DNA of 64,000 nt from Parachlamydiales bacterium (GTDB lineage: Bacteria; Chlamydiota; Chlamydiia; Chlamydiales; JAJFMK01), in assembly GCA_963765145.1 (NCBI GenBank), contig CAVXVG010000005.1, positions 64,001 through 128,000 on the forward strand, read 5' to 3'. Position 1 is the first letter of the stretch. Each line of letters begins with the position of its first letter. The notes under the pieces were generated by a model, which saw only the letters and a list, made by a program, of their open reading frames with translations, made no database searches and was not told the origin of the DNA. Shown one piece after another: positions 26,373 through 62,556 of the stretch. The translations under genes were made by a program, and so were the position numbers.

Positions 26373-26891
26373 ATGAAACTTCTTTGCACACTTATACTAG
26401 CGGTATCGGCACTTGTTGCTGCTGATCCTATCGTTGAACTGAATACCTCTGAAGGGGTAATCGAGCTCAAGCTGTTTCCTAATGCGGCTCCAAAAACTGT
26501 AGAAAACTTTGTGGGTCTTGCTGAAAAAGGGTATTACAATAACACCACTTTTCACCGTGTCATTCCAGGATTTATGCTGCAAGGCGGAGACCCACTAGGA
26601 AATGGAACCGGCGGCGAATCGCTTTGGGGCGGCAAATTCAAGGATGAATTTAGTCCGAGCTACACTTTTGATAAGCCATACGTACTAGCCATGGCCAATG
26701 CTGGCCCTAATACAAATGGAAGCCAGTTTTTCATTACAGTCGCTAAAACACCTTGGCTCAATAACAAACACACCATCTTTGGTGAAGTTGTGAAGGGTCA
26801 AGATGTCGTCAAAAAAATCGAGGCCCTTGGCAGCAATTCAGGCCAGCCTACTAAAAAAGTGACCATTCTAAAAGCAACTGTTAAGCAGTAG
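26373..26891 (+). CDS. Cyclophilin-type peptidyl-prolyl isomerase with signal peptide
   Basis: [43 protein letters not shown]. Confidence 0.95.
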
Positions 26892-27228
26892 TAGCTGGAA
26901 GGAGTTCAATCTCAGTAGGCACTTGGGTGTAGTTGCGTGGCTGACGGTTCATGTGGCTACACCTTTCCATTAATGCGTATGTAATGATGCAAGCTAAGGC
27001 TATTAAAGTCACAATGGCAGTTGTAACTTCTGAAGCAAAATAAGCTTCTGCTGTTGCTTTTGGACAAGCATGCTCTGTCCCCTCGTTTTTTGCACAGTTC
27101 CGCTCTAAGCCTGCAAAAATTATAAACGCCACTCCTGCTAACGCTGCAGTAAGTGTTAAGCGAGGCAAGTTTGGGTGGTTGTAAAGTGGTAGAGATTCTC
27201 TGATGTTGCTGATTACTGATGTAGACAT
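26881..27228 (-). CDS. Small two-TM Inc-like protein (paralog of 28622..29017)
   Basis: Two hydrophobic segments separated by a loop with two Cys ([12 protein letters not shown]). Confidence 0.6.
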
Positions 27229-27269
27229 ATGTGTCCTTGGTAATTAAATGCATCTCTTCAGTTAATACG

Positions 27270-27711
27270 CTAAACTTTCCATGGATTGAGGAGGTCAATT
27301 TTTGCTGATTCAAAGTCTTTGGTGTTTTCAGTCACCACAATTAAACCGTGGTGTAATGCAGTGGCTGCAATCATCCCATAGGCGAGAGGAAGGGGTTTCC
27401 CTTTCTTTAGGGCTGCTCCGTGTATTTTTCCCCAAGCAAGGAGTACTTCTGTAGAGATAGGAAGAAATGCGTCCTTCAAATCTTGGGATTAACTCGCTGC
27501 GTAACCATTCTTGCAGAGCTACTTTGTGTTTTTCTTGCTCTTTGGTCTTAACGTCAATTTTCGATATACCGGCCTCAATTTCACCTAGTGTAAGAACACT
27601 AATAAAATAGGAACTATCTGGGTGTTTGTTTAGCCAAGCTTTAAGCTTTTGATCTGTCGGATTTTTTTTTCGTGCCTTAGAAAGAATGCAGGTATCTAAA
27701 AGATAGCTCAT
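27270..27711 (-). CDS. vapC: VapC/PIN toxin, +1 frameshift near 27463
   Basis: YLLDTCILS, SVLTLGEI, then in the other frame LPIS...IAATAL.HGL.VVTEN.KDF. Confidence 0.85.
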
Positions 27712-59371: not shown

Positions 59372-62300
59372 GTTGTTGACCACCCTCTACCTCCTCTCCC
59401 GTTGCCATCGCCATTTTATCGTTCCACTTATCCATATACAGATAGATCACAGGTGTCAAATAGAGAGTGATCAACTGAGATAAAAGAAGCCCCCCGACAA
59501 TCACATAACCAAGGGGCCTTCTGCCAACAGCTCCCGGACCAGATGCAAACATGATAGGAACTGCCCCCATAATAGCTGCAAAGGTGGTCATCATGATGGG
59601 TCGAAATCTGACAACGCAAGCATCAATGATGGCATGGTAAGGGTCTTCATGCCTTTCTCTTTTATTTTGCAGCGCAAAGTCGACCACTAAAATCCCGTTC
59701 TTTTTGACAATACCGATCAATAAAATCAAACCTAAATACGAATAGAGGTTTAATGGCATGTCAAAGACCCATAATGTGAGAAGTCCTCCCAGAATAGCAG
59801 GTGGAAGGGACGATAGAATGGTCAAAGGGTGGATAAAACTTTCGTAAAGGATGCCAAGGATGATGTAAATAGCGATGATAGAGAAAATAAACAGGATGCC
59901 CAGCGAAGAAACGGACTCTTGAAAGGTTTGGGCAGCCCCTCTAACATTTGCAAATACTCCCTTACTGACGGTCTCTTTTGAAATGTCCTGGATCTTTTTC
60001 AATGTGGTACTTAGAGCGGCTCCATGGGAAAGATTAAAAGCAAAAGTCACGGCAGGCAATTGGTTGATGTGGTTGACCTGCGAAGGGCCGCTGCCAATTT
60101 GCCAGTTGGCGACAGTTGACAAAGGGACAAGCCCCCCTGAGGTGATGCTTTGGACCCAAAGGGCACGCAAATCTTCAACCGTCTTTTTTGCCGGCTCAGG
60201 CACCTCTAAAATTACATCATATTGGTCATAAGAGGTGTTGATTCTTGCCACTCGGTTGCCGGAATAGGCATACAATAATGTCTGCTGTATTTCTTGTGCG
60301 GTCACACCTAAGGCAGAAGCTTGTTCACGCAATATATTGAATTTCACTTGAGGTGCATTGATTTGCATGTCACTGTTAAGTCCTTGCAACTCATCCATTT
60401 TCTTAAGTTCTGTAAACATGTTGGTGGCACTTTTAAAGACATCCTCCCGATTCCATCCTTGCATGGTATATTGGTAGGCACCACGGCTAGAAGAACCAAT
60501 ATCCAAGTTGATCAAAGGCATATTTTTTAAATAGGTGTTAATGCCGGGAACTGCCTCTAGCTTATCCATAAAATGAAGAAGAGTATTTTTAACCGTCCGT
60601 TGGTTAAAGGGGACTAAATAGACAGAAAGAAGCCCTTGATTGACTTGAGGCGTCCCATAAGTAGACATCATCGACACAACATTTGGATCGTGTTTAAGGG
60701 CGTCGGCTACTTGATCTTGCAATAGGCTCATTTGAGCAGGAGATGTACCTTCTTCTGCAACGGTAAAGCCTTGGATAAACCCGATATCATCATCGGGAAG
60801 GAAGTCTTTGGGGAGGATGTAAAAAAGAAAACAAGAGAGGAGAACGTTTAAAATACCTACCGTTAGAATGGTCTTTCGATAGGGGATCCATTTATGGAGC
60901 GAATTTTCATACAACCGGTTGAAATTTTCGTTTAAATAGTCAGAAAAATTTTTCTTTTTGCCCGTCTTTTTCAGCGACAATATCCTGCTGCAGAGCATCG
61001 GTGTCAGGGTTAAAGAGATAAAGCCTGAGCAAAGTATGACAATGATTAGTACCATCGAAAACTCGAAAAATAGTCTTCCGACAATGCCTGACATATAAAC
61101 TAAGGGGATAAAAACGGCAGCAAGTGAAAGGGTCATCGAGACAATGGTAAAGCCGATCAGGCGAGAGCCTTCAAGGGCAGCTTGCCACCTTTTCATCCCT
61201 TTTTCCATGTGGTGGACAATGTTTTCCAACACAACGACCGCGTCATCGATGATAAAACCGGTAGCTAATATTAAGGCTAAAAGAGAGAGATTGTCGATAG
61301 TGAACCCCCACATCTCCATGAACCAAAAGGTCATCATGATTGACATGGGCATGGCAAGAGCCGGGATAAAAGTGTCGGTCGGGCTGCCAAGATAGACAAA
61401 GATGACGAGTGTCACTAAAACAATCGCGACAATCAGTGTTTCTTCGACTTCTTCAATCGAGCTTTTGATCGTTGCTGCTTTGTCATACATCACTTTGAGC
61501 TTGATCGAAGCGGGCAATTTTTCCATTAAAATGGGCAGCTCATCTTTTATGATAGAGGAAAGCTTGACGGTATTGGACCCCGGTTGCTTGAGAATGGCCA
61601 AAATGATGGCCGGAATGCCTTCTTTGTGGTCTTCATCGTAGTATTTCACCCCAAAACGGGTGTTTTCGACACTCGAAAGAGGCTTTCCTATTTCATCAAA
61701 GCGGGTCGGTGTTCCATCTTGCCATTTTAAGATGACCGGGTCGAACGCCTCGGCCGTTTGTAAATTGGCATCAGAATCGACAATCCACGAACGGTTGTAT
61801 CCATCGAGCTGCCCTGTAGGTAAATCGGGGGTGCTTCCTGCAACTTGACCTGCCAAATAGTCCCAACTTATGTCCATGGTTGAAACTAGATAGGGGTCGA
61901 CCCCAATCCTGGCTGCATAGGGTTGTCCTTGAACGAGAACTTGCGCAACCCCCTCAACCATTGACAGTCGCTGAGCTACCAGCGTAAAGCCGTAACGGTA
62001 AATTTCTGCAAGATCGACCGAATCGCTCATCATGGCGATATACATCACAGGTGTATCAGAAGGGTTGACCTTTTGAAAGATGGGAGGGTAGGGGAGGTTA
62101 CGAGGTAGAAACGCCTGAGCCTGGGTAATGGCAGCTTGTACGTCTAGCGCTGCCCCATCTAAATTTCGAGATAAATCAAAATTCAAAACAATTTGGCTGT
62201 TTCCCAGTGTGTTTTGAGAAGAGACACTAGTGAGCCCTGGAATTTGCATAAATTGTTTTTCAAGGGGCGTTGTCACGATAGTCGCAATCGTTTCTGGACT

Positions 62301-62462
62301 TGTGCCCGGGTAAACCGTTGTCACGGTGATAGCAGGAAAATCGACATCGGGCATGTCGCTGATGGGCAGTTTCCAATAACCTAAAACGCCCATGAAAAAA
62401 AGAAAGACCATGACCAAAACAGTCATGATGGGACGCTGAATAAAAAGGCGAGAGGGGTTCAC
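59364..62462 (-). CDS. RND efflux permease (MdtB/MdtC-like)
   Basis: FIQRP, LATGFIIDDAVVVLENI, GIVKKNGILVVDFA, RFRPIMMTT. Confidence 0.95.
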   Translation of the reverse strand: MNPSRLFIQRPIMTVLVMVFLFFMGVLGYWKLPISDMPDVDFPAITVTTVYPGTSPETIATIVTTPLEKQFMQIPGLTSVSSQNTLGNSQIVLNFDLSRNLDGAALDVQAAITQAQAFLPRNLPYPPIFQKVNPSDTPVMYIAMMSDSVDLAEIYRYGFTLVAQRLSMVEGVAQVLVQGQPYAARIGVDPYLVSTMDISWDYLAGQVAGSTPDLPTGQLDGYNRSWIVDSDANLQTAEAFDPVILKWQDGTPTRFDEIGKPLSSVENTRFGVKYYDEDHKEGIPAIILAILKQPGSNTVKLSSIIKDELPILMEKLPASIKLKVMYDKAATIKSSIEEVEETLIVAIVLVTLVIFVYLGSPTDTFIPALAMPMSIMMTFWFMEMWGFTIDNLSLLALILATGFIIDDAVVVLENIVHHMEKGMKRWQAALEGSRLIGFTIVSMTLSLAAVFIPLVYMSGIVGRLFFEFSMVLIIVILCSGFISLTLTPMLCSRILSLKKTGKKKNFSDYLNENFNRLYENSLHKWIPYRKTILTVGILNVLLSCFLFYILPKDFLPDDDIGFIQGFTVAEEGTSPAQMSLLQDQVADALKHDPNVVSMMSTYGTPQVNQGLLSVYLVPFNQRTVKNTLLHFMDKLEAVPGINTYLKNMPLINLDIGSSSRGAYQYTMQGWNREDVFKSATNMFTELKKMDELQGLNSDMQINAPQVKFNILREQASALGVTAQEIQQTLLYAYSGNRVARINTSYDQYDVILEVPEPAKKTVEDLRALWVQSITSGGLVPLSTVANWQIGSGPSQVNHINQLPAVTFAFNLSHGAALSTTLKKIQDISKETVSKGVFANVRGAAQTFQESVSSLGILFIFSIIAIYIILGILYESFIHPLTILSSLPPAILGGLLTLWVFDMPLNLYSYLGLILLIGIVKKNGILVVDFALQNKRERHEDPYHAIIDACVVRFRPIMMTTFAAIMGAVPIMFASGPGAVGRRPLGYVIVGGLLLSQLITLYLTPVIYLYMDKWNDKMAMATGEEVEGGQQHA

Positions 62463-62556
62463 TTAAACTCCATTCTCAGGAACTGCTTGCTCTGCGGGTA
62501 ATGAAATTTTATCATTCCACTTATCCATACAGAGATAAGTCATGAGTGTCAATTAG
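62463..62556 (-). pseudogene. Isolated 3' end of a second RND permease gene
   Basis: Encodes LTLMTYLCMDKWNDKISLPAEQAVPENGV*; 42/51 nt identical to 59413-59463; its stop abuts the RND GTG start. Confidence 0.8.

Follow-up and report, generated by a model that had tools for sequence, protein, structure and literature searches.

Displaced copies of core-gene 3' ends bracket accessory genes in Parachlamydiales genomes and point to probable additive recombination without an integrase

In the genome of a Parachlamydiales bacterium, accessory genes are found directly behind core genes, with a displaced partial copy of the 3' end of the core gene on the far side of the insert. The stretch analysed here (the window: 64,000 nucleotides of contig CAVXVG010000005.1, C5:64001-128000) contains three such brackets and the beginning of a fourth, at the ends of a cyclophilin (site a), a glutamate synthase (site b), a cytochrome c (site c) and an RND permease gene (site d). 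An earlier note on this window had proposed a repeated route of gene acquisition that uses no integrase and leaves target duplications at gene 3' ends. The repeated acquisition is borne out: the geometry recurs in excess throughout the genome, relatives have empty sites, a sister species carries different cargo at the same gene ends, and the brackets contain no integrase and share no common ends. Most copies are unlikely to be exact target duplications, as the two copies of a gene end differ mainly at synonymous positions. We estimate at roughly 60% the probability that the brackets were formed by RecA-type additive integration of relatives' DNA through a single crossover, retained where the gene survives.

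The window belongs to a 2.68 Mb assembly in 37 contigs (G000) with a completeness of 84.8%; the public runs that contain its DNA are peat and soil metagenomes, with no RNA run among those listed. It was compared with a congener for which the full 2.64 Mb chromosome is available (G001; 1312 reciprocal best hits with a median identity of 81%) and with locus L135 of another relative, the only one that the metagenome scan yielded. Genes of G000 and G001 were predicted using our own Markov-model calls.

The copies were counted in two scans. The first, a gene-blind seed-and-extend search, collected low-copy repeats at most 15 kb apart in which a gene end has a non-genic partner. In G000, 3' ends gave 34 direct copies downstream versus nine upstream, 5' ends gave three and seven, and two inverted copies lay downstream; the corresponding numbers for G001 are 23, 7, 1, 4 and 4. 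The second scan (the flank test) covered all core-gene ends of both genomes that face accessory DNA, with a search for the reverse complement as a control. A direct copy is present at 41/685 3' ends versus a reverse-complement copy at 1/685, and at 11/521 5' ends versus none (3' versus 5', p = 0.0009); the 41 and the 11 contain a few tandem paralogs. The genome-wide enrichment of 3'-end copies that the earlier note had anticipated is thus seen against reverse-complement, upstream and 5' controls alike. When a single simple pipeline is applied, copies are obtained at 43 of 2827 gene ends in G000 and G001, at 2 of 191 from other chlamydiae and at 1 of 712 from non-chlamydial loci (1.1 Mb), the latter being biased to cyclophilin neighbourhoods. 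Across the order, the spread beyond G000 and G001 rests on two cases in the ∼206 kb examined of genome G044.

Selection by hand among 69 and 60 candidate rows left 45 copies, which belong to 41 host-gene loci (22 in G000 and 19 in G001) and have a median repeat length of 75 bases and a range of 30-252. One G000 site is listed twice among the candidates because C19:909-12888 and C25:1-12000 have 12 kb in common at 98.2% identity, so that the assembly contains either two strain versions or a recent duplication. Copies are stacked at four host genes, and three host genes have copies in both G000 and G001, with different cargo in each. At C29:211312-215483 of G000, three stranded copies of one host 3' end (of about 73, 360 and 100 bases) alternate with small cargo genes.

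A fixed orientation of the cargo, which had been described as antisense to its host gene, is not found. An antisense gene opens the cargo at 22 of 41 flanks with a copy and at 256 of 634 without one (p = 0.10; ten flanks with an intermediate score were excluded from these counts). Taking the last cargo gene instead (20/41 versus 292/634, p = 0.75) or cargo of one or two genes (9/19 versus 180/436, p = 0.64) did not yield a bias either.

The bracket at site c is 2.8 kb long. The cytochrome c gene (58492..59160, reverse strand) ends in a 63 bp repeat at 58537-58599 that returns at 55718..55780 on the same strand with 62 of 63 letters identical, and this includes the exact 59 bp match of 58541-58599 to 55722-55780 on which the earlier note was based. 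Between the two copies lies a single gene on the forward strand (55913..58441) for an 842-amino-acid (842 aa) protein that is without a family match and has four paralog matches in its own genome. In both G001 and L135 the site is empty, and the cytochrome c gene overlaps an RF-1-domain gene there. The designation of the host as TsdA-like has to be dropped, as only cytochrome c models match and no search gave TsdA. In G000 the host region 58492-59383 consists of two open reading frames (ORFs), where G001 and L135 have a single ORF of 292-293 aa. Close to the boundary between the two ORFs, contigs from relatives show a one-base difference, so that a frameshift or a misassembly in G000 is possible. 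Just outside the stranded copy lies a RAYT transposase gene (55137-55679) flanked by REP elements (55019..55692, forward strand), which we regard as a bystander.

At site b, the left repeat (34055..34111, forward strand) takes in the last bases of the GATase/GXGXG gene of glutamate synthase (31718-34090) and the following 21 bases, a total of 57 bp. The right repeat (36487..36544, forward strand) agrees with it at 46 of 58 positions with one gap, as had been noted earlier; it carries a TGG>TGA nonsense change and keeps the native downstream flank. The 2.4 kb block encodes an F-box protein (34177..36363, reverse strand; Pfam F-box-like). Contigs from three runs of two studies show the empty site, with the glutamate synthase end joined to 36553; their shorter side measures 39 letters and was placed at 85% likeness. 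In two of these runs, the 30 letters in between resemble, by eye, what follows the stop codon in the right copy, with which 19 of 22 letters agree (15 for the left copy); in the third run the contig matches the left copy up to 34105. Both forms of the repeat therefore occur as single-copy alleles in relatives, which fits a donor and a recipient allele. The F-box gene is hardly covered in four runs, a coverage hole that proves nothing. The glutamate synthase itself (29115-34090) is in three pieces: a weak Glu_synthase match of 458 aa, a strong one of 427 aa, and the GATase/GXGXG gene.

Site d extends beyond the window. The second RND permease gene (59364..62462, reverse strand) starts directly against a remnant of the 3' end of the first RND gene (62463..62556, reverse strand), as in the native operon. 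The intact, MdtB-like first gene is located outside the window, at 70886-73978 in window coordinates on the reverse strand, and is identical to the remnant at 49 of 64 positions. This completes the bracket at site d, which spans 8.3 kb and has a repeat of 64 bp or more. Its cargo begins with a 585 aa orphan on the forward strand (62676..64000 within the window, ending at 64433) and continues beyond the window with a 102 aa gene and a 1687 aa Rhs gene. In L135 the site is empty, and the native end of the first gene abuts the start of the second. G001 has different cargo here, an antisense phd-type pair, together with its own 112-base copy. The isolated RND end and the general layout had thus been recognized correctly. 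What adjoins the intact gene, however, is the co-directional Rhs pair, and antisense orientation is confined to the far orphan. The site d copy differs from the intact gene at 17 synonymous and five nonsynonymous positions, which is above the expectation for neutral decay at p < 0.05. By eye, the remnants in G000 (62463-62556) and G001 (L018:16124-16235) share changes that are missing from both intact genes, and one of these creates an extended −10-like hexamer ∼45 bases before the next gene. The RND remnant may be kept as a promoter and ribosome-binding site.

At site a, the intact cyclophilin gene (26373..26891, forward strand; Pfam Pro_isomerase) contributes a left repeat at 26853..26890 and the stranded cyclophilin end lies at 28579..28616, both on the forward strand. 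The reported 22 bp identity of 26869-26890 and 28595-28616 is correct, and the extended alignment matches at 32 of 38 positions, so that the repeat exceeds 30 bp only if mismatches are allowed. The 1.7 kb block carries on the reverse strand (26881..28506) a 115 aa hydrophobic orphan, a vapC-like PIN gene, a phd antitoxin and a 136 aa ORF with internal repeats. For the orphan, which had been labelled Inc-like, no family match was found. The gene immediately past the copy (28622..29017, reverse strand; 131 aa) is 27% identical over 94 aa to the 115 aa cargo gene and, judged from this resemblance, is likely to be its resident allele. G001 has an AbiEi-like pair as cargo at this site, a single gene end and no copy. 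In the vapC-like ORF (27328-27711) the PIN match covers only residues 3-66; relatives' contigs from three runs show an internal one-base indel, and the G000 copy may be frameshifted. The 136 aa ORF contains three near-identical units of 34-41 bases at 28179-28294.

The expectation that relatives without the passenger carry one copy of the repeat agrees with the empty sites at b, c and d. Junctions were also found to be spanned by contigs from public runs, which cross the right copy at site a (contigs of 2053 and 1198 letters) and the stranded copy at site c (455 letters) with 0 differences. This makes an assembly error unlikely at a and c, with the caveat that these runs may share their source with the assembly.

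By our calculation, with transitions weighted 4:1, a copy that decays neutrally after an exact duplication should show a synonymous share of ∼0.44 among its differences. Over all 45 copies, 288 of 458 differences from the intact ends are synonymous and 170 are nonsynonymous. Eleven rows were then excluded (five inside called ORFs, three second copies of a host, two of a host with a doubtful frame and one involving IS1634), and the remaining 34 copies give 220 synonymous and 119 nonsynonymous differences, a share of 0.65 (p = 5e-14). Individual copies with 12 synonymous and no nonsynonymous differences, or with 15 and 2 or 34 and 8, combine a large allelic distance with little decay. The two copies are therefore likely to be alleles from two lineages and not the products of an exact target duplication. 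At C36, one of the 138 coding bases in the repeat is changed, whereas identity between the stacked paralogs is 43%. In-place duplication cannot give this contrast, which argues for an imported allele stacked before the resident one.

In the mechanism that we favour, a piece of a relative's chromosome would bring in the last 30-250 bases of a core gene together with different downstream genes; the donor would be another strain or a sister species. A single homologous crossover, presumably made by RecA, would let the incoming end complete the gene and push the old end with its downstream junction behind the cargo. Either the fragment would have been circularized beforehand, or its far end would have been joined illegitimately upstream of the stop codon; the two routes would look alike here. 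Selection would keep events that leave the gene whole and would favour 3' ends, because a duplicate 5' end must carry the promoter too. Short repeats would persist since long ones loop out. Both G000 and G001 have genes for RecA, ComEC and DprA. Among the three mechanisms that had been put forward earlier, only a Campbell-type single crossover agrees with these data; a need for Ku and target-primed reverse transcription are not supported, for reasons given below.

Several points weigh against this reading. The set of 45 copies depends on hand selection, and among the 20 copies with at least eight differences only ten exceed neutral decay at p < 0.05, the other ten not being significantly above it. 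At sites a, b and c the differences are too few for the synonymous test. Polarization with G001 is weak, with 86 synonymous changes on the copy versus 74 on the intact gene, and later replacement of the intact gene's allele after an exact duplication could likewise produce a synonymous excess. In the same way, the two alleles at site b could be excision products formed through the repeat. Among 112 clean lineage-specific insertions, just 11 retain a detectable copy. Neither a donor molecule nor a circle or excision joint was seen at a, c or d, where cover is patchy, so that this is no evidence either way. One case in G001 is clearly a target duplication of IS1634, which makes the class a mixed one. 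Finally, the model is silent on how the cargo first became a neighbour of the gene in the donor.

A long target duplication could alternatively arise exactly at a DNA break, by a staggered break or re-replication with end-joining capture of foreign DNA, possibly involving Ku and LigD, and then be obscured as the copy decays and the intact gene later exchanges alleles. Several copies are indeed near exact (62/63 at site c, 113/114 and 319/320 in G001, and 199/204), and decay is evident from 12 premature stops and from polarized nonsynonymous changes, of which 69 of 88 fall on the copy and 19 on the intact gene. Ku-LigD genes lie inside the window, and double-strand breakage is suggested for restriction-modification units in the accessible text of PMC2853133. 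Yet at many sites the synonymous excess comes with hardly any decay. Ku is shortened to 129 aa in G001 (L006, G001 495355-495744; the adjoining LigD genes are full length) and was not found in G044, which is 94% complete; both genomes have cases, and end joining is weakened as an explanation, although the loss in G001 could be recent. At 25 of 45 copies the similarity stops within 15 bases of the stop codon, as if coding homology set the edge, and faster decay behind the stop would explain this equally well. Taken together, we regard a break-induced duplication as unlikely.

The three further explanations are weaker. Islands of tyrosine integrases with attachment (att) sites in gene 3' ends could have lost the integrase and kept the cargo; the anatomy is that of e14 in icd with icdC, where synonymous differences occur too according to the available part of PMC13626634, and the stacked copies resemble accretion. 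No integrase match lies in any of the 45 protein-gene brackets (the nearest are 15 and 17 kb away), compared with a tyrosine integrase in six of seven tRNA islands. A decayed-island origin would also have to account for 41 host-gene loci in two genomes, the absence of any serine resolvase match in either, and the lack of a common att-like or inverted end motif over 52 sites (one IS1634 case excepted), and we consider it very unlikely. If anything less probable still is a local tandem duplication of the gene end with its downstream gene, followed by divergence and decay: cargo homologous to the gene beyond the copy occurs at 6 of 54 sites (BLAST) and at site a, but the remaining sites have no such homolog, and the non-coding copies at a and C36 have been conserved far better than the paralogous proteins. 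The least probable origin is transposition by IS1634-type insertion sequences (ISs) or target-primed reverse transcription. IS1634 and IS1549 produce repeats of 8-514 bp according to the accessible text of PMC2266710. In the L007-L008 region of G001 (536009-537656) a single-copy IS1634-family element with inverted ends is flanked by an exact 75 bp target repeat (75/75) at a gene end, and the G001 bracket with the 319/320 copy contains an IS1634 gene in two pieces. A group II intron reverse transcriptase/maturase, above its NCBIfam cut-off, is encoded in the window at 5842-7158. Terminal inverted repeats are nevertheless present at only 1 of 52 sites, this IS1634 element (a second high score is a REP pair), and in G000 there are only IS1634 fragments below the cut-off. 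Most antisense cargo keeps 57-290 bases of AT-rich upstream DNA beside the copy, which is more than an mRNA should carry and argues against an mRNA template. At a-d no integrase, transposase or terminal inverted repeats were found, in line with the statement that no integrase or IS ends bound these blocks, and this makes a transposition origin unlikely there.

A role of REP elements and RAYT was considered and rejected: multicopy repeats come after 5 of the 45 copies, compared with 487 of 2610 core gene ends, so that REPs are not enriched. Within the window, palindromic REP-like elements of several families occur at 11749-12317, 17283-17694, 36689-36892 and 55019-55697.

The footprint itself has been published. 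Insertion with long target duplication was described for restriction-modification (RM) genes by Furuta, Abe and Kobayashi in 2010 (PMC2853133), and in the accessible text the features in common with our sites are inserts below 20 kb, long and variable direct repeats, the absence of mobile-element genes and an empty site in relatives; the repeats often span a start or stop codon, the gene is left intact and the species are mostly competent. Sites a-d are all shorter than 20 kb, have repeats above 30 bp (a only with mismatches) and contain neither integrase nor transposase, and b, c and d have an empty site in a relative. The cargo differs from that class. No match to RM families was found in the cargo of a-d, which consists of effector-like orphans, toxin-antitoxin pairs and Rhs. 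Unlike in the reports on RM units, the copies here were counted genome-wide in chlamydiae and show a bias for 3' over 5' ends; they also differ synonymously, pointing to two alleles and not to cutting by the cargo. Our sites are a well-documented case of the published footprint with non-RM cargo, and not a new system. A literature search, judged from titles and the starts of abstracts and with most subscription journals outside its coverage, found no description of such duplications in chlamydiae.

The closest experimental parallel comes from Escherichia coli, where linear DNA with homology at one end, when trimmed and recircularized, integrates by a RecA-dependent single crossover and leaves gene-end duplications of 109-950 bp (PMC3240628, accessible text). 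There too the cargo lies between an intact gene end and a partial duplicate; that system is a laboratory construct under selection, whereas the repeats seen here are natural and shorter, and no intermediate was seen. Homology-facilitated illegitimate recombination (HFIR) and the sequential displacement of Rhs modules of type VI secretion systems share the single homologous anchor, the resident end moved downstream and the stacks. In the accessible parts of PMC5361080 and PMC3240628, however, HFIR usually deletes recipient DNA, which is duplicated instead at b, c and d, and displacement arrays concern toxin loci, while the anchor here is any core gene. The HFIR class is also defined by RecA dependence and by 3-10 bp of microhomology at the far joint. 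The e14 prophage shares an intact gene on one side and a displaced C-terminal fragment on the other, but in the available text of PMC13626634 elements of this type need a site-specific integrase. The IS1634/IS1549 class has terminal inverted repeats and a DDE transposase inside the repeats. Integrase-free hotspots that are turned over by recombination in flanking core genes likewise have variable slots next to core genes, with cargo that changes from one relative to another; as described in the accessible text of PMC5635113, a double crossover swaps the slot and leaves no duplicate, while the event here is additive.

For insertion with long target duplication, a process whose mechanism is still to be explained, the synonymous excess and the natural occurrence of two alleles at site b speak for additive recombination with DNA from relatives rather than for cutting by the cargo. 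For chlamydiae, the stranded gene end is a readable scar of the entry of host-interaction genes into the genome without mobile elements, and about one in ten clean lineage-specific insertions still shows it. A more far-reaching and doubtful extension is a self-renewing cassette cycle that needs no dedicated enzyme, in which the cargo would loop out through the gene-end repeat as a circle and re-enter the same gene end of a sister species by RecA, even across a sequence difference of 10-25%. If this were true, any core gene end would be an attachment site at which environmental chlamydiae could stack effector and toxin-antitoxin genes, and through which such repertoires would move between species.

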